Shown piece after piece: positions 4,726-54,071 of a stretch of 64,000 nt of DNA. The translations under genes and the position numbers were made by a program. This DNA is from Eledone cirrhosa. Lineage: Eukaryota. The first letter of the stretch is position 1. Each line of letters begins with the position of its first letter. Where the stretch lies: assembly GCA_964016885.1 (NCBI GenBank), contig OZ024755.1, positions 19,282,001-19,346,000 of the forward strand, written 5' to 3'. Under the pieces are notes generated by a model. That model was not told the DNA's origin, searched no databases, and was given only the letters and a program-made list of their open reading frames with translations.

Positions 4726-4926
4726 ACTCTATGACTTAAAATATGCTTAACATAGAGAAAATACTGCTTCAAGGAACTGCACTTATACTAAATAGAGTAC
4801 TTTCAAGACAAAACTGAAACAGAACTCTGCATGTAGTCAAGGTGCATAGAACTGTGCTCAGTAGTGCAGTGAAAGCATTCAATATAAATAAAACTACTGA
4901 GAAAAATAAAATGATAATAGACTCAC

Positions 4927-5193
4927 TTCCGCTAAAATGCGAGAACGGTCAGTTAATCCACCACTAGCTTGACGGTATCGTTCTTTGATCTCAGCTAGCT
5001 GATCCTGGAAGGCACGGAATTCTGTGAGAGAATGATCCAGTTGCTTGTTCGTATATTTCTCACGGCTACGGATTTTCTCGAGGGATCTGTCTATTTCATC
5101 TTGGAGTTCTTGGAGATAGGACTTTGTTTCTTCCATGGAAACTTCTATGTTGCTCTTGTGCTGATGCATTTGATCGACATGGAGTCGCCAATC
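4927..5193 (-). CDS. IFT57: IFT57 coding exon 8
   Basis: DWRLHVDQMHQHK...LEKIRSREKYTNKQL...ERYRQASGGLTDRSRILAE, conserved IFT57 coiled-coil; CAG/GTGAGT flanks. Confidence 0.96.
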
Positions 5194-5280
5194 CTGCAAA
5201 GATCATTTATAAATGTAAATACCTTCAAAAAAACTAAACCTTTGTATCTCTCAAGCTAGTTAATGAAACCTACTCCTTTC

Positions 5281-11651: not shown

Positions 11652-11799
11652 CTAAAGAAGATAAGATAAGAAAAGAAATAAGAAAAATAGATATAATTAT
11701 TATTAACTAAAAAAGCTACAGTTTAGGACCTCACAACCTGCAAAGGCAGGGGAAGGGCTGCACAAAATATTTACATGGTATATATATATGTATATGTAG

Positions 11800-13697
11800 G
11801 TTTCACAACAAAAAGCACCCAGCCCACACTGTAAAGTTGTCGTGTAGATGACACGATAAAAAGCACCCAGCCCACACTGTAAAGTTGTTGTGTAGATGTC
11901 ACGATAAAAAGCACCCAGCCCACACTGTAAAGTGGTTGTGTAGATGACACGATAAAAAGCACCCAGCCCACACTGTAAAGTTGTTGTGTAGATGTCACGA
12001 TAAAAAGCACCCAGCCCACACTGTAAAGTGGATGTGTAGATGTCAAAATAAAAAGCACCCAGCCCACACTGTAAAGTTGTTGTGTAGATGTCAAAATAAA
12101 AAGCACCCAGCTCACACTGTAAAGTGGTTGTGTAGATGACACGATAAAAAGCACCCAGCCCACACTGTAAAGTTGTTGTGTAGATGTCACGATAAAAAGC
12201 ACCCAGCCCACACTGTAAAGTGGATGTGTAGATGTCAAAATAAAAAGCACTCAGCCCACACTGTAAAGTGGTTGTGTAGATGTCAAAATAAAAAGCACCC
12301 AGCCCACACTGTAAAGTAGTTGTGTAGATGTCAAAATAAAAAGCACCCAGCCCACACTGTAAAGTAGTTGTGTAGATGTCATAATAAAAAGCAGCCAGCC
12401 CACACTGTAAAGTGGTTGTGTAGATGTCAAAATAAAAAGCACCCAGCCCACACTGTAAAGTAGTTGTGTAGATGTCTAAATAAAAAGCACCCAGCCCACA
12501 CTGTAAAGTGGTCGTGTAGATGTCACAATAAAAAGCACCCAGTCCACACTGTAAAGTAGTTGTGTAGATGTCAAAATAAAAAGCACCCAGCCCACACTGT
12601 AAAGTGGTCGAGTAGATGTCACAATAAAAAGCACCCAGCCCACACTGTAAAGTGGTTGTGTAGATGTCAAAATAAAAAGCACCCAGCCCACACTGTAAAG
12701 TGGTTGTGTAGATGTCAAAATAAAAAGCACCCAGCCCACACTGTCAAGTTGTTGTGTAGATGTCAAAATAAAAAGCACCCAGCCCACACTGTAAAGTGGT
12801 TGTGTAGATGTCATGATAAAAAGCACCCAGCCCACACTGTAAAGTAGTTGTGTAGATGTCATAATAAAAAGCACCCAGCCCACACTGTAAAGTGGTCGAG
12901 TAGGTGTCACAATAAAAAGCACCCAGCCCACACTGTACAGTAGTTGTGTAGATGTCAAAATAAAAAGCACCCAGCCCACACTGTAAAGTGGTTGTGTAGG
13001 TGTCAAAATAAAAAGCACCCAGCCCACACTGTAAAGTGGTCGAGTAGGTGTCACAATAAAAAGCACCCAGCCCACACTGTAAAGTGGTTGTGTAGATGTC
13101 AAAATAAAAAGCACCCAGGCCACACTGTAAAGTGGTTGTGTAGATGTCAAAATAAAAAGCAGCCAGCCCACACTGTAAAGTGGTTGTGTAGATGTCAAAA
13201 TAAAAAGCACCCAGGCCACACTGTAAAGTGGTTGTGTAGATGTCAAAATAAAAAGCAGCCAGCCCACACTGTAAAGTGGTTGTGTAGATGTCAAAATAAA
13301 AAGCACCCAGGCCACACTGTAAAGTGGTTGTGTAGATGTCAAAATAAAAAGCAGCCAGCCCACACTGTAAAGTGGTCGTGTAGATGTCAAAATAAAAAGC
13401 ACCCAGGCCACACTGTAAAGTGGTTGTGTAGATGTCAAAATAAAAAGCAGCCAGCCCACACTGTAAAGTGGTTGTGTAGATGTCAAAATAAAAAGCACCC
13501 AGGCCACACTGTAAAGTGGTTGTGTAGATGTCAAAATAAAAAGCAGCCAGCCCACACTGTAAAGTGGTTGTGTAGATGTCAAAATAAAAAGCACCCAGGC
13601 CACACTGTAAAGTGGTTGTGTAGATGTCAAAATAAAAAGCAGCCAGCCCACACTGTAAAGTGGTCGTGTAGATGTCACAACAAAAAGCACCCAGCCG
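11800..13697. repeat. 48-bp minisatellite, about 39 units, derived from a retroposon 3' segment; a shorter array is at 10480-10700
   Basis: AAAAAGCACCCAGCCCACACTGTAAAGTGGTTGTGTAGATGTCAAAAT, period 48; the same unit occurs 1-3 times inside SINE-B and RTE 3' UTR copies. Confidence 0.95.
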
Positions 13698-13705
13698 ACA
13701 AAGGT

Positions 13706-13989
13706 ATTGTTACATCTGGAATGCTCATTGAGAACAGATCTGGAGCAGAACAACAACAGATTATTTCCTTGTTTTATAGTGTTACATCTGGAATGCTCAT
13801 TCAGAACAGATCTGGAGCTGAACAACAACAGATTATTTCCTTGTTTTATATTGTTACATCTGGAATGCTCATTCAGAACAGATCTGGAGCTGAACAACAA
13901 CAGATTATTTCCTTGTTTTATATTGTTACATCTGGAATGCTCATTCAGAAAAGATTTGGAGCTGAATAACACATTATTTCCTTGTTTTA
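13706..13989. repeat. 72-bp tandem repeat x4 ending about 20 bp from the IFT57 exon-1 donor
   Basis: GTTACATCTGG at 13709, 13781, 13853 and 13925. Confidence 0.93.
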
Positions 13990-14010
13990 ATAAGCCAACA
14001 ACCTCCTTAC

Positions 14011-20934: not shown

Positions 20935-22170
20935 CTTTAAAAGAAGAACGCAGTAGTTAACACCTAATAACAAGATATATATATAAATACGTTCATTTTC
21001 CCTGCTAGCAAGGGTTGGATGGGTAGTCAATACTTAAATCAACACTGAATCAGAGTCACCGATCTCTTCAATGGGCTGGGAGTCCATTGACATTCTACAG
21101 AGTGAGAAATGCTGTACAATCATGGCACCAATGAGGATGTCATGTCTTTGATACAACTGAAAAGTCTTCTTTATTCTTTGTTTGGAAAGTTTTCTACAGT
21201 TGGATGTCCTCCCTATCAACTTTACAGAGTGTGTTTTAATGAAAGAGGTTTCTGTATCCTTGACATATTAAAGTCTTTTCAACCATTTTTGGTATAGTTT
21301 CTACTGTAGGATATTTTGGATATTTCCACAACACTGCTGTGGCAAAGATTATAGGGCACTGGAGTTGATTCATCATCATCATCATCATCACCATTTTACG
21401 TCCGTTCTTCCATGCTAGCATGGGTTAGACGGGTTGTCCTGTTGTGGGCAGTGTCTGGTCGGCTGATCATGCCTTGCTCATACAGGAACTGATTTTGGCT
21501 TGATTTCTACAGCTGGATGCCCTTCTTAACACCAACCTCATTTACAGTGAGTACTGGGTGCTTTTTCCGTGGCGCCTACACGTCCACTTTACAGTGTGGG
21601 CTGGGTGCTTTTTTGCCGTGGCACCTCCACGACCACCTTGCAGTGGGAGGGTGTGGGGGCATATTGTCTATATGCTTCAGCTTGTACCCATGGGGGGTCG
21701 GGTACTCTGTATTGATTGATTGTTGTTATTCTCTCTCTCTCTCTCTCTCCTTCCCTTTGGAAGAAATTAGATGTGTTCAGACCCATGGACATGGGGAGGG
21801 ATGGGCATACCAGCTCTTTAAAATGCACAAGACACACTATCTAGAGTTCAGGGCCCATGAATGAATGAATCTATAATTTTGTAATGTGGGTAAAATGTCT
21901 CAGGAAAAAAAATCCCTGGATGGATTTTACAGGCAAAACCAATTGGCAGGAGACTCAGGGGGTACACTCTGAGCAAGATGGTTGGATAACATCCATGAAC
22001 TCGGCTAGTCTCACTTGGGGCTCCAGCTGGATTAATTGGAGACAGTTGCTTCTAACAGGACCCACTGGAAGGAGTGTTTGAGGACTCTGCCTCCATGTCC
22101 CTCCCAGGAATAAGAGGGCAAAGAAAAAGAAGACAGGTAAAAAACGAAAAGAATAATACCTCAATTTTAC

Positions 22171-22468
22171 CTTTTGTAAATATATATCCTCTCTCTTTTC
22201 TTATTTCTTCCATGGCAGTAATTCGAACAGTCTGTACTTGATCTGTGTATTTCTGAAAGAAGTAATCTAGGTCTGTCTGTCTACGGGCATCACTAATAAT
22301 CCAGATAGGTTTTTTATACTCATTTCCATATTCTTCAGATGTAGCTACCCTGCAGAAATAACTTGGGTCAATATTTCTTCTCTCCTCTCCATATTTTATC
22401 ATCTCCTTTCGGTATTTCTCTTTGTAGTCTGAAGAATCGTTTAATTTTTCATATAATAGGTTGTTTTC
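22171..22468 (-). CDS. PMVK: PMVK coding exon 3
   Basis: ENNLLYEKLNDSSDYKEKYRKEMIKYGEERRNIDPSYFCR...PIWIISDARRQTD...QTVRI...RGYIFTK; CAG/GT flanks. Confidence 0.95.
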
Positions 22469-23627
22469 CTGTAAATTATATAAATGGAATTTAAGAAGGA
22501 ATCAATTGCCCCCTTGCCTTTAATTCAACAAATCAGCATCATCATCAACATCGTTTTTACATGCATCGGTTTGACGGGTCCTTTTCAGCACAATATCTCT
22601 TCACATGTCGCAATCCTTTGACATCACCACTCAGAGTTTCAGCAATTTGAGATCAGTTTTCACCACCTCTGCCCAGGTCTTCCTTGGTCTACATCTACTG
22701 CAGCTTACTTCCACTGGCATTTCTTCACCCAGTGATCACCACATAGACATTACTCCTGATTCTTCTTATACTCAGTTTTTCTCTGCGTTCATCGAAGCTC
22801 TGTCAGACTTCAAGAAATAGCAGTCAAATCTCTGAACAAAATTACAATATGTTCATGATTAGAATGTCTTTCATTATAAAGTCAGCTTGATCAAGGGTGA
22901 GTTAGAGCTAAACAAGTGTTATTCAACTGCTGGGGGGGGGGGGGGGGGGGCAATAGGTTATGTAGCCGGTAAACCCTAAAGGGACGCAACACACATCGCT
23001 ATAGTGTTTCACCTGCTCCTTCCTTCTGTTGTCTGTACCTGTTTATGTATTTACGTGCAGATGTGTGTGTATGTAAAGCGTAACGTACGTTACGAATGGA
23101 CGACTAAATGATTTTAACTTGTTTTTTTAACAATTGATGATGGAATAGATTTCAAATTGTCTAACTCGGGCCGTAACTCATGGTGTCTGACACTCTTACC
23201 AGCTACATAGCCTCTACCGAAAAAAAAAATGAAAATTCAAATCGTGTGCATAGAGTTATGTCCCTTGCCAACTGTTGAAACGAGTCTTAGCATCCTACCA
23301 CCTTAATTAGTTGGTTCACCTAAATGATATACATGTCCATGATAAAAGGCTCAAGCAAAATGTAAAATGTAGTCATCCCCACAAAAAAAAAAAAAAAAAA
23401 AAAAAAAAAAGAAATCTGACAATGGACCCAGACCTGATGTGAAATGTAGGCCTCGATGTAGGATAGTTTAGTTTTTTATGTGTCTTAGCAGTAAGATATA
23501 TATAATAGCAATAATTTCAAGCTTTATGAAATTTTAGCCCAATACTTAATCTATTCAGTCGTTCTGTTGGTAATTACATTACAAATTAAAGACAAAAAAT
23601 GGTTAATCTTGGTTTAAATCAACTTAC

Positions 23628-25333: not shown

Positions 25334-26775
25334 ATGCGGTATTTCAGGAAAACCTTTGATTGTTTAAGATATAAACAATCTTCATTTAGAAAGTTTCTTA
25401 TTCCATGCCAAAGGCGCAAAATGTGTGACAGTACCGAAAATATCCAACCTTCAGTTGTTTCTGACCATTCTTTGCAAGACGTATGCACTACTGTCCGAGA
25501 GGGAAAAGCTGACGTATTTTTACCCAAATCTGTATTTTACAATCCAGTACAAGAATTTAACCGAGATTTAACTATTGCTGTTATTTCGGAATTTACTAAA
25601 AATTTCATTAATGATCCTTGTCATCTGAAGCGGATCGCAGCATTGGAAGAGAACCGTGACAGCAACAATTGTAACAAAAATGAGACAGTTCATGATAAAA
25701 GTAGTCCCAATAATGAAAGCTTATCCACAAAACAGATAGACACTTCTGGTAGTTCTAACAACGATAAAGGTGATAGTAATGAAGAAAATTCAACAGTGGA
25801 ACAATCTCTTGAAGCTGGAAAGTTTTATAAGAATGGGGTTCGTATTTTAGAAGGACTTGCAGCTTCTGGGCTGCGTTCAGTTCGATTTAGCCTTGAAGTT
25901 CCAGGTGTGAAGGAAATCATTGCAAATGATTATGATGAGAATGCTGTTGACTATATAAGAAAGAACATGGACAAAAATGGTGTCAGTAACCTAATGAGGG
26001 CCAATTGTGGAGATGCATCAATGTTTATGTATGAAAACCGTGAATATAAACAAAGTTTTGATGTTATTGATCTCGATCCATATGGTAGTCCTGCCCGGTT
26101 TTTAGATGGCGCAGTGCAAGCTGTGTCAGTGGGTGGCCTTTTGTGTGTGACCTGCACTGACACAGCTGTGTTATGTGGAAATGCAGGTGAGACTTGTTTC
26201 TCAAAGTACAGAGCGATGTCTCTACGTAGTGACTATTGCCATGAAATGGCACTACGTATTATACTTCAGGCTATCGAGACACATGCTAATTGTTATTCTC
26301 GCTATATTGAACCACTTGTTTCCATTAGTGCCGATTTCTATGTACGTGTTTTTGTACGAGTCTTTAAGGGCCAGGGAAAAGTGAAGCAGTCGGTGAGTAA
26401 ATTGGCTATGGTTTACCACTGTGTTGGATGTGGAACATTCAGTCTTCAGCGACTAGGTGAAAAAATACCGACCAAAGGTAACAACTTCAAATACACTCCT
26501 GCGCAAGGCCCACCTGTTGGACAAATTTGTTCACATTGTGGACATAAACATAACGTTGGTGGACCTATCTGGGCTGAAGCAATACATAATAAGGACTTCT
26601 TAAAGCAAGTTCTAACCTCAGTCCAAGAAAAAAAATATCAGTTAAATACTAAAGAACGTATTATGGGAATGCTTTCAGTTGCACATGAAGAACTCTCAGA
26701 TGCTCCATTATTTTATGTTGGAGATGGAATATGTGATAAATTACATTGTGTTGCTCCTAGTCTTTTGCAGTTCAG
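25334..26775 (+). CDS. TRMT1: tRNA (guanine26-N2,N2)-dimethyltransferase, coding exon 1
   Basis: VFYNPVQEFNRDLT, ILEGLAASGLRSVR, FDVIDLDPYGS, GGLLCVTCTD and GGPIW motifs; AG|GTGAGT donor. Confidence 0.97.
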
Positions 26776-27556
26776 GTGAGTTTTACCTTCTTTTTTTTTA
26801 CCTATCATTGACCCGTCCAACCCACACAAGCATGGAAAAGCGGATGTAAAAAGCGATGGTATACCGATTCAAATATAAGTCAACCCACCTATTTTATGTC
26901 TGAGAAATAGGCAAAAATCCAAACCACATTTATAAGCCAAGGCAGCTAATCAACAAATTAAGATGGCATATATAATCTGACCCCTCTCTCCATTTTACCT
27001 TCGGTTTTTTTGTAAAAAATTCCTTGACTTATATTCGAGTAATTAATTATACAGTAATTAAAGAATAAGTTTTTAAGTATTTACTGTATGGTTTAGAATA
27101 AATAAAAGTTTTACTGAAAATTTCTTCAATCATTTTTTTTTAATATTCAAAGTTTCTTATTTTATTTTATTATCTGTTATAGATAAACATATTATATCAA
27201 CTATATTTTACACACAGAAGTTATACAATGATGGAAATATAAAAAAAAAAAAATAGAGACAAACTTAAGTAATGAAAAAAGGAGGAAGGGGTAAAGAAGG
27301 GCAGATCTAGCTGTATAAGAAAGTAAAGGACTATAAATGCCATAAATGAGAAGAAAAGGAGGGAAAGCGCAAGGATTATTAGGCAACGAAAGAAAGAACG
27401 GGTGATAAACTCTACTCCGAAGGGTGGGGCAGTGAATTGGCTGTATGTTCCAATGGATATTAGGGAATCACTTATGTTATTCCATCTAACTTTGTAGATG
27501 AATTCATAGAATCACAGTCCACTTGTTCATATATATATATATATATATATACATAT

Positions 27557-29173: not shown

Positions 29174-29763
29174 TTTGGGTAATAATTAAATTTATACCTT
29201 TAAGTATGATTATATATTTATATATATAATTCTTATGAAGCCCTCTTCAGATTTTGATCTTCATATCTATTATTACTATATACATATTTATATTCAGGGG
29301 CGGTCAGTCTAAACGAATGGACGTAGGCTGCCCCTAAACAAATATTCCAATTTTATTTTTATTTTTTGTGTTACCATGATTCTTTTATGATTTTCATGCA
29401 ATGCACCTGATGATGTTGTTGGAATTCTACTGGCCATTGAAATATATATATAGTGTCTGCAGAAATAAATACTTTAAAGGAATCTCAAACTTTATTCAAT
29501 AATATATATATGTGTATACACAGACACACACAATACTGACGGTGCTGTTGTACACCATCTGCAAATGCAGGTGCCGATGTCTAACCAGGTGGTGAAGTAA
29601 CTCTGTTTTTATTTTATAGTGTTCAGTCATTAATATATTTATCTCAGACAAATATAATAAATATTTAAAATGCTTTTTTGAATTTTAATTATTAAATGTA
29701 AAATTTATTAATATAGACTTTTAGAAAATGATTTAATAATTTCTGTTTTGTTTTTGTTAACAG

Positions 29764-30042
29764 GATATAATGAGAGAATGGACCAAAAAGCATCCTGTTA
29801 ATGAGAAAAGGTTACAGCCAGGTTCTGTTTCTAAAGCTATTTTAGATAAGAAAGCTACCCATGATATATCCTTTGATATTCATCCAGATGCCAACCCTCC
29901 ATCTCGTAAACAGGGTCTCTTGCGCTGGCAAGTAAACCCTGAACCAAACTGGGGACCAAGACCAAGAGCTAAAATATTTAATGAAAACCAAGTTGAGAGT
30001 AAACCAAAGGCAGTGAAAGTGAATAAACGGAAATATGAAAAG
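29764..30042 (+). CDS. TRMT1: TRMT1 coding exon 3
   Basis: DIMREW...HPDANPPSRKQGLLRWQVNPEPNWGPRPRAK...KRKYEK; CAG/GTATGT flanks. Confidence 0.95.
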
Positions 30043-31148
30043 GTATGTACTTTTAATGAAACAAGTAGACATCTTTTGTAGTTTATTGTGTTATATTAGG
30101 ATTTAATCTCTCCACTGCATTTAGTATTTACATTATTCTATATCTACTATTGTATTTTCACAGTAAAGGCTTTATCTCATTATTATCTCACATAATATTA
30201 AATATATGATTTTGATGTTATTTATTTTGAGAACAACACTTTAACTTAAGTATGAGCAGTCAGTTACAGCTGGTTCGAACAGAAAGAAGTGAGAGAGTTC
30301 TGGCTGGATATGGTCGGTTTAATACCCCCTAATTGGCCCTTGGGTCTCTTTAATGAAATCCACTCCACTCTAGTAGAAGCTTCTTTGGCTTGATAACAGA
30401 CCATGGACACAGCTTGGCCAAATAGTTAAGAAGTTTGCTCCACAAATATTAGGTCCCAAGTTCAATCCCAATGAAAGGCATCATGGACAAGTGTCTTTTA
30501 CCATATTCTCAGTTTGACCCATACTTTGTGAGTGAAACGGGGTAGACAGACACTGTTTCGAAGCCCGTCAAATGGCCTGTACCTGTAATTCAAAGGGCCC
30601 AGCATACCACACACTATTATGCTGAATCTCCCTGAGAATTACATTTAAGGGTATGTGTGTCTGTGGAATACTCAACCACTTACATTATAATATCTAATGG
30701 ACTGTACCTGTAATTCAAAGGGGCCAGCATGTCACACACTGTGTTATGCTTAATCTCCCTGAGAATTACATTAATGGTACACGTGTCTGTGGAATGCTCA
30801 GCCACGTACACATAAATGTCATGAAGAACTGGTTGCAGGTCTTCGTTATTTTGATCGTTAATGTATTGTTCATTTTCTTTGATGTTGATTAGAGATAAAA
30901 ATTTATTTTGAATAAGGAAGAAAGTACACAGACTGTATTTTCAAAAGATTTTTTACCTTTCAACCTTTCATTGCTATGTTTTCCTTATCGTTTTTACACC
31001 TGTTTTTCCACTTTTACATTGATAACAATAACAACAACAACAACAACAACAATAATTTTATTGAATCATTTTTTCTGTTTGTTTAAATTAAATTTTGGTT
31101 TGAATATTAATGTCAAATTAATTTGTTTACTTTATCTGCTTATTTTAG

Positions 31149-31274
31149 GTAGAACTTGACCTGAAACTGTATTCTTGTAAAAATCTGAAAACAGGAAATT
31201 GTAAACTTGGAGATACTTGTCGATACAGTCATGATTTTGATCAAGTTAACAAAGTCAAAGAAGGAACACAGTAG
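31149..31274 (+). CDS. TRMT1: TRMT1 last coding exon with CCCH zinc finger
   Basis: VELDLKLYSCKNLKTGNCKLGDTCRYSH...TQ* (C-x7-C-x5-C-x3-H, as in metazoan TRMT1); AATAAA at 31366-31371. Confidence 0.9.
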   Translation, partial: VELDLKLYSCKNLKTGNCKLGDTCRYSHDFDQVNKVKEGTQ

Positions 31275-36782: not shown

Positions 36783-38262
36783 TCTAAAATAAAAATATGT
36801 TAATAAAGATTCTAAAGAGACTGAATAAGCTACTGAAGGAGGATTAGAACTCCTGGATACCCTCTTCTCCAATCACATGCACTCTCTCCTGTTTTTAACC
36901 AATAGAGTTGGCCCTTTCACCCGCACTACTGCTTTTGAAAGAGATTTCTAATATTTTTCCTGTCAAACTTGTTAAACAGGAACTACTAGTTTTAAACTCA
37001 GGTTTTAAACTCAGATCTTTTGTGAGTTTTGATGGGAGTAATGGCTGTTAAATATATATTTATTTTCACTGATATATTAAACCTTGAAGTTATTTCTCCT
37101 GTTGGTAACTGAATTTATAGACAATAGGAGATAAAGAAAAACATCCCATCTTGATTTTCATTAAAAACTGATTGTATATATTTTTAGCATTTGTATTCCT
37201 TTTCATACTTCTACATAAACCCATACGCATGTTTCACATGAATAAAAGCAACAGATAAAATTAGTTTACATCCTCAGTTTAAAAAAGGAAGAGAAATTCA
37301 AGTATCTAACTCTGTCATCACATATTGGTCCATGTAAGTTTCCTTTATATAATATGTAAAAACGAATTTTGAAGTTGATATGAATGTAAACATATTTATG
37401 AAGGAAACATAAATACTGATTTCTTTTGACTAGTCTTAAAGTACATAATGTATCTATGTAAATCTTTTTAGTATAGTAGGATTGGGAAATTATTTTAACC
37501 CAGTCCCCTCTAATTGGGAAATTTCTATAAGGGGTTTTAGGGATTTCACCAGCAAGTTGTTTTAAACCACCCATTTTATAAGGGGCTTTAGGGATTTCAT
37601 CAGCAAATAGTTTTAAATTTGAATGCAGTCATAATTTTGCCTGTGAATTCCCTATCCTAGAGATAGATGGTGGTTGAAATCTTAAAACTGAATTTCTCAC
37701 TAAATGCTTCAGAGCCTTATCAAGGAGTTTAAAAGCTCATATGAAATGCATATGATGTTAAACTGATATTTAGGGCTCCTTATTTTTTCCCAATGAAAGA
37801 AAATTTATGGGGACAATTCTAAGCTTTAAAACTGAGTTCAATTGAAATTTAATAAAATTCTCATGGGGCACCAACACATTCCATACCTATTTCATTTTCA
37901 TCTCCCAATTAATTCCTGTCAACACACCATAAATTAATATTTCAGCTCCGGTAACTACTGTTTATTTATAATTATCTCCTTTTAGCACAAAGCCAGCAAT
38001 TATCCCAGTGCATTACTGGTACTTTATTTTATTGACCCCATAAGGAGGAAAGGCAAAATTAACCTCAGCGGGATTTGAACTCAGACCATAAAGGGCCGTA
38101 ACTCTTTGCTGCAAAGAATGGCGTCCGACCCTCTACCGATACTGCTAATCCACTGCCCTACTGTTTATTTATAATGAGAGATAGTTTAGCATCCATCCAA
38201 TACAGATTGTTGGGAATTTATTAAAGATTTTGTAACTAAAATAAATGTTGTTTTCTTTGCAG

Positions 38263-38531
38263 ATGTATATAATTAAAGTGTTTCTTACTTTTATGCTAAT
38301 GGATAAATATGTGTTTACATTACGTCTAATGTTAGACCAAGAAACATTTAATTTTAAATCAGAATCAAAGATTGAAAATGATGTTAAAATAAAACAGACT
38401 TTCATAGAAAATTACCCAAATTTGTTTCACACTAAGACAGAATTGAAAACAGAAAGCACTGACAAAAGGAGGCCTAACGGGTTTGACCAGACAAGAAGGA
38501 AGATTAACCGTGATGATTGTTGTTGTGGAAC
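38263..38531 (+). CDS. Spaetzle/cystine-knot-like secreted precursor, coding exon 1
   Basis: Polypyrimidine-CAG|ATG; MYIIKVFLTFMLM... hydrophobic start, hydrophilic pro-region, ...DKRR...RRKINRDDCCCG; AC|GTAAGT phase-2 donor. Confidence 0.72.
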
Positions 38532-39069
38532 GTAAGTACCAGTATTGCTTTATTTATTTATTATGATTATTGTTGTTGTGGATTGGCAGTATCAATAGAA
38601 CATCGGACGACATGCTTCGCAGCATAGAGATACGGCCCTTTACGGTCTGTGTTCAAATACTACTCAGGATAGCTGAGCCTTTCATACTTACTGAGTCGAT
38701 AAATAAGCATCAGTGATGCACTGGGGTTGATTTAATTGATTTTCCCTTCCCCCAAAATTGCTGGCCTTGTGCCTAAAGTAGAAACAATTATAATTGTTGT
38801 TGATGTCTAACATAGACACATGACCTCATCAAGTAGAGTCCATTATATTGACCTCAGTATTCACAGGATCACCAGCCAACACTCTCGTGTCTCAAATAAT
38901 GCCTATGTCTGCATGTCTGCATGTGTGCGCAGGTATGGATGTTATTGTATGTGTGGATGTGGATGTTTTGACTTATATGTATGGATGTGCATATGTTTTG
39001 TATCTGCACATGTGTACATGCAGTTATTGCATGCAAAATTTTTGGAATGTTTTACTTATTTTTACTCTT

Positions 39070-40120
39070 CCAGTAATTGTAATTTCCTAACTAGTTGTGT
39101 TCTTTCTGTTCCTGTGAAGCCTAGCTTCTCAAGATTTGTTCTGAGGCAGTTACTAACCTTTCCCGGTACCCCGATAATCACAGGTATAAATCTGAAGGTG
39201 GAGTATCTGCAGATTCCTCATTAGTTCTGCACAAATATTCTCCTTTTCGCTAATCTTTGATATTATATTAGTATCTGCTGGGCAGCTAACTTCCACTACT
39301 GTGCATGCCATCTTTTCTCTGTTCCATATCATTATATCTTGTCTGTTATGCTTGCATTTTTGATTGGAACATTTCACCAGTCATCTTTTATATTATGTAT
39401 GTATATGTTTTCCACATTGCTGTAACTTTGAATGTTTATTGTCGGGGCTATCTTTTCTATGGATTGCATTGTATAGTGTTTTGGCCACTACATCATGCCT
39501 CTTAGGTAGATAGTTACTGTTTTGACATCTTTTGACAGTTACTTATGACATGGGTGACATCTTCCATATTAATTCTGCAGAGTCTGCATTTGTTGTCACT
39601 TCTAGGTGTTTTGCCTGCATCCCTATCTCTTTTGTGAATCAGGTATTTTGTATTAATTTCCTGTTCTTGGATTGCAAAAGCATATTCTTCAAAGTGAGAG
39701 TCAATATAACAGTTGTTGGTCCAAGATAAACTACTTTGCCTACCTCTATTACTCTCACCCTAGAGCCTCCTGGCAACATATTCACAGTGGTATTGCTGGG
39801 CAATTTCCCTGAGTATGAGTTTTTGATTATCATACAGGAAGTATCTTTCAAGGAATTCCTTCCCAACCCACATGATCTTATCTGTCTCATGCAGACAGAT
39901 TTGCTTAATAGACAACAAGACCTCCCATACTTCTGGCTCCCTAGACCACAATGTCTAATGTGTTCTTTGTTGTTTAAAAGTTTAAAACAAAAGAACATAA
40001 TTAGGAGATCAAACAACCAAAGTGGACAGTTTCTTACCAGCATTTCAAACAACCATACCTCCGCTTCCACAGTGGATGTTCCATACCAACATTTCCAAAA
40101 CAAGAAACTTGTTGCACCAG
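39070..40120 (-). mobile_element. Decayed RLE-type non-LTR retrotransposon (zinc knuckle and endonuclease) in intron 1 of the Spaetzle-like gene
   Basis: CRINMEDVTHVISNC and HNRQDIMIW...VVEVSCP...KENI..EL...IPVIIG with frameshifts. Confidence 0.7.
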
Positions 40121-40227
40121 AAAATGAACATAATTGAACTCACATATATCAGATTAGATCAGATAATAGTTCAATATGAGATAATATTGAAGTCAGTTAA
40201 TTTTCCTTACTGTTTGTTTATAATTAA

Positions 40228-40458
40228 TCTATCTATCTATTTAATGCTAAAACTCTGTGATTGTGTGCTTGTCTGTAATTTAATACAACCAGAACGTTGT
40301 ATAATGGGAAAATACTTTGAAAGGAAGTTGCTTCTGAAATGGGAATACAAAGGGAATAAAGCAAGTTTCACGTAAATTGGAGTACGGGTTCCCAAGATTC
40401 GGGGTTTTTCTGGCTACCTTCATAAAAAGAGAGAGGTTGTGAGAGAATAGATTCAAAG

Positions 40459-40489
<31 letters not shown>

Positions 40490-40990
40490 AGGCACATGGC
40501 TTAGTGGTTAGAGCATTGGGCTTGCAATTGAAAGGTTGTGAGTTCAATTCTCAGACCGGGTGATGTGTTGTTTCCTAGACCAAGACACTTTATTTCACAT
40601 TGCTCCAGTTTACTCAGCTATAGAAATGAGATGATAGGACTGGGGTCCCTATCATTCCACTGCAAAGTCGACGTGTAGGCGCCACGGAAAAAAGCATCCA
40701 GCACTCACTATAAATGAGGTTGGTGTTAGGAAGGGCATCCAGCTGTAGAAATCAAGCCAGAATCAGTTCCTGTAAGAGCAACACAAAGTCAGCCGACCAG
40801 ACAATCCGTCTAACCCATGCTAGCATGGAAGAATGGACGTAAAACGGTGATGATGATGATGATATATACACATACACACACATATATATATGGGCTTTCC
40901 AATTTCATTTTACATTATATACATGTCTGTATATATTTAAAAAAATATATTTTCAAGTGTACGTGACCCAACGGGTCACAGGTGGTCTAG
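40228..40990 (+). mobile_element. Non-autonomous Helitron with a nested full-length SINE-B (40490-40863)
   Basis: A|TCTATCTATCTATTTAATG... GTGACCC-AAC-GGGTCAC hairpin ...CTAG|T. Confidence 0.7.
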
Positions 40991-41016
40991 TTTCTAATAA
41001 TCTTTCATTTTTCCAG

Positions 41017-41130
41017 CCAAGAAACTTTCAAAATTGTGAAAGAACTGACAACTGTTCATGGAACTGTAAAACAAATTATCAATTTTAAAGGTGCCTATCA
41101 AGTTATTCCTTGGGCTACGTGTTTGAATTG
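41017..41130 (+). CDS. Spaetzle/cystine-knot-like precursor, coding exon 2
   Basis: TTTTTCCAG| (T)QETFKIVKELTTVHGTVKQIINFKGAYQVIPWATCLN(W) |GTAAGT; 114 nt, phase 2-2, open. Confidence 0.8.
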
Positions 41131-41968
41131 GTAAGTAAGGTGTAGACTGTAAATATTTTTCTCCTGCTTCCTTCCTCCTTTCCTTCTGCCATCTCTTTTT
41201 ATGCTGTTTGACCCTTCTTTTTTTTTCTTCTTTTCATTTTCTCCTTTTTTCTTCTTTTTCTGTTACCTTTTATAGTGTGCTTTGTTTCCTATTAGATACT
41301 GTGACACGTTCTCTGCTACCAACCTAGTCACTTTGGCCACAAACCTCGGTACCATGACCCACAATGCAAAAGACAGGACAAACAAGCACTGGAGTTTGTT
41401 TGGCTGCTTCCTCTTTGCACTGGTCACTGTCAAGACTTCAGGTGTCCTCAAACCCCAAACAGCTGATGATCTCCTCTGTAAATTCATAATGACAGTAGCC
41501 CGTTTAAGGAAGGAGTCCCACAAGGTGGGGTGGCTGTTGCAGTGGGTGTCGTTGGCCAATGTCCGCAGCAATACCTTTGCTATTTCATCCGTGAGGTGCA
41601 GCCAAAACACAGCTCTGACTTAGGTGTAGAGTCTGTCACCCTCTCTCCTTCCCTTTTTCTTTCGTTGCTGAATAATCCTTGCCCTTTTCCTCCTATTTAT
41701 AGTCATTTGCAATGCTACTCTCTTTTTCATTATATTTAACTAAATATGAAATTCTTTATTAATTTTATGTGATTTTATCCATATGATTTTTTTCATATGT
41801 CAATAACTTTTCATGACATTGAGAGATTATATATATTGGATAAATAAAATCTATTACATAAAAAAAGGAGTAGACTGTAAAACCCGTTCTCTAGCACCAT
41901 AGTTCTGCCAAAAAAATGTTTGGACATGCAAGCTTAAAATAATTTTCATTTAATTTTCTTTTGTTTAG

Positions 41969-42092
41969 GGGTTCTTGTCTAAACTGCCGCCTAATGAAAA
42001 GAACTATTTCTCTGCTGGCCTGGACAGAAGTAGGGACTGGTAAAAAACCAATGTTTGATTTGTTTTCCGTTCCTATGTATTGCTCATGTTAA
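41969..42092 (+). CDS. Spaetzle/cystine-knot-like precursor, last coding exon
   Basis: TTTTGTTTAG| GSCLNCRLMKRTISLLAWTEVGTGKKPMFDLFSVPMYCSC*; the C...LLA...D.F.VP..CxC ending is typical of Spaetzle domains. Confidence 0.8.
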
Positions 42093-42126: not shown

Positions 42127-42348
42127 CCCTTTAGCATTTAAACCAGCCATATCCGGCCAGAATTCTCTCACCTCTTTCTGTTCAAACCGGCCATAACCAG
42201 CCACTCATATTGACATTAAGGTATTGTTTTCAACACAAATATCAAAATTTTGTAGATTCAACATTATGTGAGATAATTATGTGAGGTAAATAAAGCCTTT
42301 ATTGTAAAAATACAATAGTAAATATAGAGTAATATAAATGCTAAAGGG
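42127..42348. mobile_element. piggyBac-type MITE, about 222 bp (also 62199-62419, 45906-46113 and degraded copies near 3055, 30115, 33100, 45530)
   Basis: TTAA|CCCTTTAGCATTTA...TAAATGCTAAAGGG|TTAA. Confidence 0.85.
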
Positions 42349-43759
42349 TTAAACTGATACTTTCAAACTCTACTGAAATCAATGCATAGGATGTATTTCT
42401 TGATAGTTATTGTATTGTCCTCTTCATTATAACAAAAATCATTTTGAAATATGTATTTGTAATGTTTTGTTGATATAAACTGTTCTCTTAGCTCAAATCT
42501 GAGATCAACTCTACCTTTCACTTTTTCAAGGTTAATAAAATAAAGTGCTAGCTCAGGATTTTTAGGATATCTTCCTCTCTTCTTTGCAGTTTCTGAAAGG
42601 TGTAACAACCGTAGGTACTAGATGGTTAAACAAATATTATATCATTATCTAATGTCTAATTTTCCACACTTGCATGGTTTAGACATGTTGTCACATTACA
42701 AGACAAATCAGGTCTGGAGACCACATCATACTCATACAGATCAGTATTTCTGAAAGGTGTTACAGTCATGGGGACTAGATAGTTAAAGAAATATTATATC
42801 ATCATTTAATGTCTATTTTTTCATGCTTGCATGGGTTTGATGGGTTATTATGTTACGAGACAAGTCAGGTCTGGAGACCATGCCATCCTCATACAGATCT
42901 GTATTTTGGCTTGGTTTTTACAGCTGGATGTCCTTCCTAACTCCAACCACATTACAGTGTTACACTGTTTTATATTTATTAACATATTTCTAATGAAATA
43001 CACTACCTATGTATTTCAATTAATTTTGAAAATTATCAAATATCTAGACCCAGGAGTAGACCCTGAGCAAGATGGTTGGATAACATCCACGAGCTCGGCT
43101 GGTCTCACTTGGGGTTCCAGCCAGATCAATTGGAGATGGTTGCTTCTGACAGGACGTGCTGGCATGACTCTCTCAAAAATAAGTGGGTGAAGAAGAAGAT
43201 GATCAAATATTAGGAGGAATTTAATAAAATTACAAATTCTGTATTTAATAACCTAATAATCAGAACACTACTTAATTAAATGCTATACATCCCTTTATCT
43301 AGATATCATTATTATCACCATTTAACATCCATTTTCCACTCTAGCATGTGTTAAATGAATTGTCCCATTGTAAGACAAGTCAAATCAGCAGACTATGCCT
43401 TGCTCATACAGAAATGTTTCTGGCTTGGTTTCTACAGCTGTATACTCTTCCTAACACCAACCACATTTACAGTGTGGACTGGGTACCTTTTATCATGGCA
43501 CCAAATTGATCACTTTAGAGTGTGGACTAGGTGCTTTTTGTCATGTCACCAACACAACCACGTTACAGTGCGAACTAGGCTCTTTTTATCATGACACCAA
43601 CACAATCACTCCACAGTGTGAACTGGGCGCTTTTAATCAGCGTTGTAGTAACTGGCCTTAATAATCACATATAATAATATTGAAATTATTGTGCACAGTG
43701 CTCAAGTGCACTATAAGATCAAAATGTTGGAAGATTAAGTATTTCTATACAAATCCTGT

Positions 43760-49698: not shown

Positions 49699-49917
49699 TT
49701 TCATTTATTGGTCACAAGGGCTGACATGTAGGGGACATAATAATAATAATACTTGAAAGAATAAAAAGGAGTCAATTGCACATTAAATTGGATTCTAATT
49801 TGAAATAATTTTCCATTTTTTTTCTGTTGACATTTTTGTGTTGTGTAACAGATCTGGATATCACATTGTCCAACTAGAGACAGACATAAATAATTAGAAG
49901 GAGTAAAGAATTTAACA

Positions 49918-49941
49918 GCATATACATATATATATACACAC

Positions 49942-49977
<36 letters not shown>

Positions 49978-50036
49978 GTATGTGTGTGTATGTTTGTGTG
50001 CATATATACTCACAGATATACAACAAAAACATATAT

Positions 50037-50067
<31 letters not shown>

Positions 50068-50101
50068 CATACATATATATATATATATACATACATATAT
50101 A

Positions 50102-50137
<36 letters not shown>

Positions 50138-50908
50138 CATACATATATATATATATACATACATATATACATATATACATACATATATACATACATATAT
50201 ATATATATATACATACATATATATATATATACATACATATATATATATATACATACATATATATATATATACATACATATATATATATATACATACATAT
50301 ATATATATATACATACATATATATATATATACATACATATATATATATATACATACATATATATATATATACATACATATATATATATATACATACATAT
50401 ATATATATATACATACATATATATATATATACATACATATATATATATATATACATACATATATATATACATACATATATATATATATATACATACATAT
50501 ATATATACATACATATATATATATACATACATATATATATATACATACATATATATATATATACATACATATATATATATACATACATACATATATATAT
50601 ATACATACATATATATATATATACATACATATATATATATACATACATATATATATATATACATACATATATATATATATATACATACATACATATATAT
50701 ACATACATACATACATACATATACATACATACATACATACATATACATACGTATACATATATATACATACATACATACATACATACATATACATACGTAT
50801 ACATATACATACATACATACATACATACATATACATACATACATATACATACATATACATACATACATATACATACATACATACATACATACACATACAT
50901 ACACATAC

Positions 50909-50953
<45 letters not shown>

Positions 50954-51344
50954 CATATATATATATACATATATATATATACATATATATATATACATAT
51001 ATATATATACATATACATATATATATATACATATATATATATACATATATATATATACATATATATATACATATATATATATACATATATATATATACAT
51101 ATATATATATACATATATATATATACATATATATATATACATATACATATATACATATACATATATATATATACATATATATATATACATATATACATAT
51201 ATACATATATATATATACATATATACATATATACATATACATATATACATATACATATATACATATACATATATACATATACATATACATATATACATAT
51301 ACATATACATATATACATATATATATATACATATATATATATAC

Positions 51345-51415
<71 letters not shown>

Positions 51416-51450
51416 CATATATATATATATATATACATATATATACATAC

Positions 51451-51483
<33 letters not shown>

Positions 51484-51579
51484 CATACATATATATATAT
51501 ATATATACATACATATATATATATATATATACATACATATATATATATACATACATATATATATATACATACATATACA

Positions 51580-51631
<52 letters not shown>

Positions 51632-51637
51632 CACATA

Positions 51638-51669
<32 letters not shown>

Positions 51670-51689
51670 CATATATATATATATACACA

Positions 51690-51723
<34 letters not shown>

Positions 51724-51842
51724 CATATACATATATATATATATACACATATATATATATATATACACATATATATATATACACACATATATATATATAC
51801 ACATATATATATATATATACACATATATATATATATATACAC

Positions 51843-51884
<42 letters not shown>

Positions 51885-52098
51885 ATATATATATATAAAC
51901 ATATATATATATATATACACACATATATATATATACACATATATATATATATACACATATATATATATATACACATATATATATATATATACACATATAT
52001 ATATATATACACATATATATATATATACATACATATATATATATACACATATATATATATATACACATATATATATATATACACATATATATATACAC

Positions 52099-52131
<33 letters not shown>

Positions 52132-52183
52132 TATATATGTATGTATATATACATATATACACATATATATATACACATATATG

Positions 52184-52215
<32 letters not shown>

Positions 52216-52242
52216 CACATATATATACATATATATATATAT

Positions 52243-52281
<39 letters not shown>

Positions 52282-52465
52282 TATATATATACACATATAT
52301 ATATATATATACACATATATATATATATACATACATATATATATATATACATACATATATATATATATACACACATATATATATATATACATACACACAC
52401 AAACACACATACCAGTATACATATATACAAACATATATATGATTATATATATATTTATATATATT
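49918..52465. repeat. About 2.5-kb compound (AT)n/(ACAT)n microsatellite
   Basis: Almost uninterrupted purine-pyrimidine alternation. Confidence 0.98.
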
Positions 52466-53782
52466 TTATGGGTGTATAATAACTAAGAGCTGTGTAATAC
52501 AACCTGTAGCTAACTACTTGTCTTTAAATGCAATGGAAATAAATGTTATAAAATGCAATAATTTTCTGCTTGAATAAACAGAAAAATAGAATAGAAAATT
52601 AGATATAACAAAATACAATAGTTCATAGATATAGTTATTCCTTTACACAACCACTGGTAATGGCTTTCTGTCATCAATGGTTTGGTTGTTAGTTACCAAC
52701 AAACATTAACTGTTCGTTGCTAGTGATCACTGGTTATTTGATACCAGAAATTTACTGGTGTCGTTGCTGCTTAACAGCAACCATTGGTCATTGGTTAAAG
52801 TTAAAGTCTCTCTTGAACTTGGAGGCTTTATTATGCTGGTGCTTATCCCCGGTTTCCTTGGCGTTAAGCAACTGAGAGTATACAACTCTCCTTGGATAGG
52901 ATGCCGATCTATCACAGGATTAACTTCCCAGTCACTGCTGGTACTCACTCTCAGCTGAGTGTACTGGAGCAATGTGAAATCAAGTGTTTCGCTCAAGAAC
53001 CCAACACACAACTCAGTCAAGGAATCGAACCGATGCCATTACAATCATACATCAAGCATCCTAACCATTATGCCATTGGTCATTGTAAGCAGTATTTAGT
53101 TACTAAATTTGCAATTCTTGGTTTGCTTGTAGGTCACCTAGCAACTATTGGTTGATGAATTGTTACCACATTAATTTAGTAGCTGAATACTTTGCCTTTA
53201 ATTGTTAGTTTGGCTGCCAGTTATCATGCCAATAATCGTTTATTTGGATACTGGTTAAACATACCAGTAATTATTAACTTAATTGCTAGTTACCACATAC
53301 CTGCCAACCTCTAAAAACCCAAATGGGGAGTACCATGAAAAAAAGTGCCTCAAAACAGGGAGAAATGAGACAAAATGGGGAGATTTTACATAATGAAAGC
53401 TATACCCATTTTCTCAAAAGAAGACATCTCTCACCAACCCCAAAGTGGGTCGAAGATCTCCCCGTTGGATGGGGAGATTTGACAGGTCTGTTACCATACC
53501 ATTTCTCAATTTGTTTGCTGGCTACCATATTAGCAACCATTGGCTTTATTGCTGGTCATCATTTCTAGCAATCATTAGTTCAGTAGCTAATTACTCACAA
53601 TCATAGGCTCCTTGTTGGTTCCCAATGTTTCCCCAAAGCTTACTTTATCATAAGGGATGCTATCATTGCTACTAGCTACAGCCAAAAGTCTGTGGTTATA
53701 TCACAAACCAAACCAACAAGCAATTTAATCTTACATGACAGACACTACGTATTTGGCAACAGTTACAAATTATCAATGTTAG

Positions 53783-54071
53783 CAGGGCCAGTGCTACCAT
53801 ATAGGCAAACTAGGCAGCCGCCTCGGACGCTGATTTCAGGGGGAGCCATTTCTCCAAATCAACAACAATTTTGAAAAATAAATAAATAAATAAATTTCAG
53901 TTTATTGAGGGTCGTTTTTTTATCCTGGTTTATTTCATACAGAGACAAATAAATGTTAAAAATCTTTTTAAATTTAATGTTTATAAATATTGAAATTGAT
54001 ATCTTCCTGCTGGGGGATGGGGGCAGAATCTAACCTTGCCTAGGGTGCCAGATAGTCTGGCACCAGCCCTG
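53783..54071. mobile_element. hAT-type MITE
   Basis: TIR CAGGGCCAGTGC...GCACCAGCCCTG with 8-bp TSD AATGTTAG/ATTGTTAG. Confidence 0.75.

Follow-up and report, generated by a model that had tools for sequence, protein, structure and literature searches.

The DNA analyzed here is a 64,000-nucleotide stretch from the octopod Eledone cirrhosa (contig OZ024755.1, positions 19,282,001 to 19,346,000 of the forward strand; hereafter the window), within which an original prediction, made from the letters alone, had placed a three-exon gene for a Spätzle/neurotrophin-like cystine-knot precursor. The three exons listed in Table 1 add up to 507 nucleotides and encode 168 residues followed by a stop codon. 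Both introns are in phase 2 and of the GT-AG type, with GTAAGT at both donors and pyrimidine-rich AG acceptors, and the predicted junctions obtained the top score against the Octopus relatives described below (779, runner-up 722) among 1,620 nearby GT/AG combinations. The predicted coordinates, intron phases and reading frame were therefore right. The tBLASTn comparison that had been proposed as a check likewise turned out in favor of the gene, since three Octopus proteins used as queries recovered all three exons in order on the plus strand. Exon 2 matched the relatives with 45% identity over 33 residues (tblastn E about 1e-6 to 4e-6) and exon 3 with 58–61% identity. Exon 1 reached a local score of 84 against the first exon of the O. 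bimaculoides form X1 and of 58 against that of the form X2, with none of 2,000 shuffles reaching either value. As far as sequence tells, the three coding exons are real and the gene is intact. Since the start codon at 38263 directly adjoins a canonical splice acceptor and the relatives start at the matching position, the transcript probably contains a further, non-coding exon upstream that belongs to its 5' untranslated region.

Table 1. Coordinates of the gene's features, of other exons in the window and of further candidate loci in the genome
Feature	Position	Strand	Basis or content
Splice-acceptor-like tract adjoining the 5' side of the ATG	38246..38262	+	Sequence
Coding exon 1	38263..38531	+	Residues 1-89 and two bases of codon 90; predicted signal peptide, pro-region, basic site, Cys86-88
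Predicted signal peptide, ~residues 1-19	38263..38319	+	Hydropathy; boundary inferred
Tyr-Pro-x-x-Phe block, residues 51-55	38413..38427	+	Shared by the window protein with all 5 relatives
Arg78-Arg79-Lys80, likely cleavage site	38494..38502	+	Alignment with furin-type RGRR/RERR; cleavage inferred
Cys86-Cys87-Cys88	38518..38526	+	One corresponds to knot Cys I, two are additional; two Cys at this place in the relatives
Coding exon 2	41017..41130	+	First hairpin, conserved Gln118, knot Cys II (125)
Coding exon 3	41969..42092	+	Cys III (131), Cys IV (134), second hairpin, D-x-F-x-V-P-x-Y-C-x-C ending, stop
AATAAA, first 3' of the stop, possible polyadenylation signal	42289..42294	+	Sequence; further copy at 42534
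IFT57, phosphomevalonate kinase and TRMT1 exons	4894-5202, 22052-22501, 25334-26779, 29761-30081	-, -, +, +	Pfam
Conventional Spätzle-domain frame	C23:17651006-17651281	-	41.7 bits (cut-off 27)
Three single-frame receptors of the multi-cysteine-cluster type with leucine-rich repeats and TIR domain	C1, C4, C19; L025:489-4592, L026:529-3939, L027:932-5341	-, -, +	

To place the gene among its relatives, an exhaustive HMMER search with exon 3 was used, which returned three proteins: O. vulgaris CAI9721673.1 (clustered with O. sinensis XP_029634877.1), O. bimaculoides XP_014782433.1, and an 857-residue protein that was dropped as repetitive sequence without the matched stretch. In BLASTP, the spliced product was 41% identical to the O. 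vulgaris/O. sinensis proteins over 139 columns and 37% identical to XP_014782433.1 over 174 columns (E 3e-34 to 6e-33). The O. bimaculoides gene is LOC106877899, with the proteins XP_014782433.1 (the form X1) and XP_052823040.1, and the O. sinensis gene is LOC115210415; RefSeq models exist in two relatives, and the UniRef entry A0A0L8GC44 of O. bimaculoides carries the automatic name 'Spaetzle domain-containing protein'. The relatives, whose orthology was assigned by best hit, are 168–175 residues long and laid out as is the window protein. Because gene models are already present in three Octopus genomes, the earlier concern that automated annotation could miss the gene is weakened. The apparently molluscan origin read from the sequence agrees with a conserved gene common to Octopus species. 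A profile search recovered four proteins from 2,062 candidates, all from Octopus, and a word-seeded search with exon 3 gave no candidate; neither the exon 3 HMMER search nor the profile search over these 2,062 candidates found a relative outside Octopus. Within the 3.0 Gb genome, this locus was the only meaningful match of exon 1, of exon 3 and of the O. bimaculoides protein, in copy searches that give lower bounds. By these searches, the gene is a single-locus gene common to four octopus species including E. cirrhosa, with no expansion seen.

The encoded protein has the layout of a secreted precursor. Its hydropathy peaks at 2.2 over residues 3–11, in agreement with the predicted hydrophobic N-terminus, which aligns with the start of XP_014782433.1, Asp14 included. 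This residue, on account of which the signal peptide had been called weak, is indeed present and is shared with O. bimaculoides X1. The pro-region is poorly conserved, its best-kept block being Tyr-Pro-x-x-Phe. Of the basic sites originally proposed, the Lys-Arg-Arg is present but followed by Pro, whereas Arg78-Arg79 aligns with RGRR/RERR in three of the four full-length relatives, X1 being without such a site. Cleavage at Arg78-Arg79 would likely free a domain of ~89 residues, and the precursor is quite probably secreted and cleaved. Cysteines stand at positions 86, 87, 88, 125, 131, 134, 166 and 168, with spacings of 37, 6, 3, 32 and 2 in the window protein and of 37, 6, 3, 31 and 2 in all four full-length relatives, so that the cysteine pattern, on whose conservation in related species the original prediction had staked itself, is kept together with the open frame. 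Compared with its Octopus relatives, the window protein carries one more N-terminal Cys, its third, and lacks both their two N-glycosylation sequons and the furin consensus.

We further compared the mature domain with Spätzle at the level of single residues. The six knot cysteines, ending in C-x-C, occur in order in the window protein, as they do in each of the four full-length relatives; their numbering was set by the register with Aedes Spz1C (PDB 7B1C). The two proteins share the registers Gln-x6-Cys II, Cys IV-x8-Leu-[Leu/Val]-Ala and Pro three residues before Cys V, and Cys IV and V are 32 residues apart in the window protein versus 30 in Spz1C. According to the accessible part of PMC2772990, Spätzle proteins carry a conserved Gln44 and an aromatic residue at site 133, lack Trp at site 130, and all have Pro13 after Cys I, whereas in neurotrophins site 130 is Trp and site 133 is Ile/Val. 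The sites were placed in the window protein by counting from Cys V and Cys II, with Spz1C and the ends of neurotrophins as guides. They correspond to Phe160 (site 133), Phe157 rather than Trp (site 130) and Gln118 (Gln44), and are thus of the Spätzle and not of the neurotrophin type. The double-Cys ending given for Spätzle in the original prediction does not occur here, Tyr preceding Cys166. Spaetzle was also the best Pfam match of all four full-length relatives (E 0.008–0.044), and neither NGF (PF00243) nor IL17 or Noggin gave a Pfam match at E<=10 in any of the four.

With regard to the fold, a feature search of XP_014782433.1 in the ESM Atlas gave a best score of 0.94, and ten of the ten best named matches belong to one family or clan. 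The corresponding structure search found an unnamed mollusc cluster at a template modelling (TM) score of 0.61 and an Spz3 cluster at 0.60, followed by a neurotrophin-1-like PF16077 cluster at 0.52 and NGF clusters at 0.51–0.55; the Atlas model itself has a predicted TM score (pTM) of 0.59. ESM models reached a predicted local distance difference test (pLDDT) of 67 and 78, and a feature search with the O. vulgaris protein, limited to its mature part, pointed, as a lead, to the cystine-knot clan at 0.82–0.89. AlphaFold2 gave poor models because its alignments of 6–8 rows were too shallow (full precursor: pLDDT 44.4, pTM 0.27; mature domain: 44.6, 0.26), and the mature-domain model is uninformative on the fold, with a best Z of 2.1 and no Foldseek match at E<=0.001. 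The cystine-knot fold originally proposed is accordingly supported as a predicted clan fold on the orthologue, the AlphaFold2 models being too poor to bear on it; judged from the orthologue, the domain very probably adopts a knot of the Spätzle/NGF clan.

When two copies of residues 79–168 of XP_052823040.1 were modelled with ESMFold2, a symmetric dimer was obtained with an interaction prediction score from aligned errors (ipSAE) of 0.51, whereas the best of three controls reached 0.01; pLDDT was at least 77, and runs agreed in at least 65% of contacts. In calibration, the mark used here was reached by 17 of 29 eukaryotic true pairs (7 of the 16 animal ones) and by none of 30 eukaryotic single chains. 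Residues of the window protein are identical at 19 of 25 interface positions and at 14 of 49 other non-cysteine positions (Fisher p 1.2e-4). In the model, Tyr162 and Tyr162' touch each other on the predicted two-fold axis, where Spätzle has its central disulfide, and the extra N-terminal cysteines do not appear among the predicted interface residues. A homodimer is, on the strength of the orthologue's model, the probable state of the mature domain.

Taken together, these results suggest a model in which an intact octopod gene encodes a secreted, cleaved and homodimeric compact knot that acts as a Spätzle-like ligand of a Toll of the multi-cysteine-cluster type, a reading as a whole to which we assign a probability of roughly 50%. 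The 168-residue precursor would be secreted and cut at Arg78-Arg79 to yield a compact cystine knot of ~89 residues, which would pair as a homodimer and, in the weakest step of the model, serve as a ligand for an insect-type (multi-cysteine-cluster) Toll. A cell-to-cell signal is the likely role, and that of a Toll ligand the best guess. Candidate receptors exist: the genome contains nine TIR matches, and three open frames of 1,137–1,470 residues combine leucine-rich repeats and a TIR domain with an internal cysteine cluster, an architecture that is predominant in Drosophila Tolls according to the available text of PMC10279657. By these domain matches, a Toll receptor is available in the genome but is not tied to the ligand of the window.

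A second ligand candidate was found at C23, where a conventional Spätzle domain lies in one open frame. It weakly matches Aedes Spz1C in the PDB (E 0.04) and has the normal Cys II–IV spacing (20 residues, versus 9 in the window protein). Upstream exons of this gene were not found by a rough scan, and a profile search with its domain gave none among 58 candidates.

Several points weigh against the Toll-ligand model. Pfam Spaetzle (PF16077) scores only 14.8–17.2 bits in all four full-length relatives, under the cut-off of 27, the three exons of the window scanned separately match no Pfam family, and the family profile finds no PDB sequence match at E<=10. The family cannot be aligned with the PF16077 gene at C23 (614 of 2,000 shuffles score as well, hhalign probability <1%), and that gene is at least as good a candidate for a Toll ligand. 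Of the Spätzle hallmarks, the proline after Cys I is missing, there being no Pro between Cys86 and Pro121 of the window protein; Octopus relatives have one or two Pro within four residues of the CC. The spans between Cys II, III and IV are 6+3 instead of the 9+9 of Spz1C. The central interchain cysteine, which is Cys94 of Spz1C, stands before Cys V and is kept in fly Spätzle (PMC9427763, in its accessible part), is Tyr in the window protein and all four relatives. The window protein has no R-x-x-R furin consensus. In addition, the fold and dimer models were made on orthologues and not on the window protein. The passing dimer score may reflect memory of solved NGF/Spätzle dimers, because only one of seven true pairs without an older solved relative reached the mark, and the conservation of the interface is not specific to dimerization, given that the predicted interface strands are the core of the fold as well. 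The claim of a Spätzle precursor thus stands for the predicted clan fold, the precursor anatomy and the Spätzle-type residues at two sites, and falls short at the Pfam cut-off, the central cysteine and the proline.

Alternatively, the same dimeric knot might act on another class of receptor, such as an IL-17 receptor or a Torso-like or other kinase receptor, or as a Noggin-like decoy or antagonist. Cystine-knot families switch receptors readily, the nearest structural neighbours are the unnamed mollusc clusters, the Spätzle hallmarks are only partly kept, and the Atlas neighbours at 0.84–0.92 include clusters with IL17 (13–64% of members) and Noggin (53–93%). The Pfam results given above for these two families run counter to it, and the IL-17 frames of the genome, as read at 4 of 52 loci, lack the Gln-x6-Cys and F-x-V-P-x-x-C-x-C features of the window family. 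An hhalign comparison with four IL-17 frames (PF06083) gave 0.1%, a figure of low power given the shallow profiles, because the Spätzle comparison was equally blank. We regard this alternative as unlikely. As an observation on the genome, a single tandem array (C1:348.6-349.4 Mb) accounts for 46 of the 52 IL-17 family matches. An expansion of IL-17 in octopus is reportedly already known.

The restriction of the relatives found to Octopus would also suit a lineage-restricted exocrine protein of the reproductive tract, egg coat, saliva or mucus that uses the knot as a scaffold and acts outside the body or upon a different individual. Rapid change is typical of exocrine proteins, and here the pro-region diverges faster than the mature domain, which is 46–48% identical between E. 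cirrhosa and Octopus and 86% identical between O. vulgaris and O. bimaculoides, a divergence that may merely reflect species distance. Against this reading, the gene is present in one copy without expansion, and six identifiers or names and three conserved motifs were absent from the supplements of a study of the posterior salivary gland and of a skin mucus proteome, a weak negative with unclear file coverage. An exocrine role is in our view quite unlikely.

If the protein were instead a true, though divergent, neurotrophin that signals via Trk/p75 in the nervous system of the octopus, a predicted dimer without the Spätzle interchain Cys would be accounted for, as the NGF dimer is formed without a cysteine of this type. 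The furin sites of the X2 type and the TM scores to the NGF clusters point in the same direction, and no NGF-family match above cut-off was found elsewhere in the genome in an exon-by-exon search, which is weak. Against it stand Phe at the Ile/Val site, the missing Trp and the lack of an NGF Pfam match, on which grounds the membership in the neurotrophins raised by the original prediction was not upheld. Such a divergence would moreover be exceptional, because the neurotrophins of Lottia, Capitella and Helobdella are recognisable (PMC2772990, accessible part). A neurotrophin proper is accordingly improbable. That the exons are real but form another disulfide fold, or that the locus is silent in this species, is very improbable, since an open frame, GTAAGT donors and cysteines kept in four species, RefSeq models in two relatives and the ESM models outweigh the low AlphaFold2 pLDDT of 44 in both models and the unusually tight Cys III–IV spacing of 3.

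With the Toll-ligand model retained, the two O. bimaculoides forms bear on how the precursor may be activated. X1 and X2 have identical exon 2–3 sequence and differ in their signal and pro-regions up to the CC, and the point of divergence coincides with the position of the window's first intron. There is a weak relationship between their first exons (score 51, 1 of 2,000 shuffles), and a furin site occurs in X2 and not in X1; exon 1 of the window is nearer to X1, yet keeps an X2-like RR. These database models suggest a duplication of the first exon in Octopus, although X1 and X2 may also represent a pair of collapsed paralogues. In E. cirrhosa, neither the window nor a genome scan of low sensitivity, which also missed the window's own exon 1, yielded a second first exon. 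A Tyr-Pro-like motif at 53909-53956 of the window (plus strand; 53921), in a 16-codon frame with E 0.09, was judged to be due to chance. Fly Spz1 is cleaved extracellularly by a serine protease, and Spz2 and Spz5 by furin-like enzymes, according to the available part of PMC9427763. By comparison with the fly proteins, activation in O. bimaculoides might be constitutive for X2, as for Spz2 and Spz5, and protease-gated for X1, as for Spz1.

A bolder form of the model, which we consider improbable, would make the protein a miniature, non-covalent octopod Spätzle with its Cys II–IV region halved, acting as the endogenous ligand of the octopods' insect-type Tolls in neural growth or plasticity, with the Octopus first exons as a switch between furin-constitutive and protease-gated activation. 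If true, the long-sought NGF-like factor of the octopus would act in the Drosophila way, as a neurotrophin on Toll, and not via Trk. The accessible part of PMC8814914 mentions that work to find an NGF-like protein in octopus was started but not published, and an oyster Toll-like receptor paper, in the part available, raises as an open question whether the Tolls of molluscs depend on an endogenous ligand of the Spätzle type (PMC3788107).

Literature searches by accession and subject, with most subscription papers outside their scope, found no paper naming the Octopus orthologues. No match was present in the supplements searched of PMC9712504 (except one PDF), PMC10138644, PMC7693380 and PMC9699675 (except one file), and the family is not described in the accessible portions of PMC8398477 and PMC8296651. 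Spätzle-like knots in molluscs are as such not new, since a clam spätzle homologue has been published (Yu et al. 2015, as cited in the part available of PMC6915886) and PF16077 is found on 12–25% of the members of the Atlas mollusc clusters. What is new, as read from sequence, is the description of a variant confined to octopods in which the knot is shortened, the central disulfide is missing and alternative pro-domains are on record. The ligand gene, the gene at C23 and the three multi-cysteine-cluster Tolls provide a short and concrete list of ligand–receptor pairs, and a compact knot with swappable pro-domains would interest structural biologists. The weight of the finding is limited by orthologues that are already in databases, one of them labelled Spaetzle, by the commonness of Spätzle-like knots in molluscs and by the putative nature of its function.

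Upstream of the gene, IFT57, phosphomevalonate kinase and TRMT1 are housekeeping genes with no evident link to it. Phosphomevalonate kinase and TRMT1 diverge in orientation, and a single frame of 481 codons covers most of TRMT1; the frame at 29761 and a likely zinc-finger exon near 31150-31274 were assigned to this gene by visual inspection alone. Interspersed repeats that recur elsewhere in the window are present in intron 1 and in the upstream stretch. At ~11700-14000, a tandem array with a unit of ~48 nucleotides produces long repetitive frames on both strands, and its unit seems to be akin to one of the window's common interspersed repeats. A 2.6-kb low-complexity TA/CA tract at ~49900-52480 (GC content ~12% at 50001-52000) gives spurious frames of 800 codons. 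Elsewhere in the genome, a 216-codon frame on the minus strand at ~172.037 Mb of C1 resembles, by eye, an exon of an ETS-domain transcription factor.

Overall, the protein should be classed neither as Spätzle proper nor as a neurotrophin, but resembles a precursor of the Spätzle/neurotrophin type. An oyster CCCGS peptide considered for comparison (76-residue precursor, 42-residue mature form with 8 Cys) differs in size and Cys spacing and has only the CCCG motif in common with it. With the neurotrophins (NGF/BDNF and the neurotrophins of Daphnia, Capitella and Lottia), the window protein shares the predicted knot fold, at the TM scores given above for the NGF clusters, and a putative basic processing site. 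Molluscan Spätzle-like proteins, namely those of the clam, the Atlas clusters and the gene at C23, have in common with it the CC start of the mature domain and the general layout of the knot. The arthropod Spätzle family (Drosophila Spz1, Spz2/DNT1 and Spz5/DNT2; Aedes Spz1C) has a longer pro-region, with 176 residues in Spz1C (PMC9427763, accessible part) versus ~60 in the window protein, and shares with it the signal peptide (predicted in the window protein), pro-region and basic site, the six-Cys knot, the conserved Gln, the aromatic residue and Pro before Cys V, and the predicted two-fold symmetric dimer.

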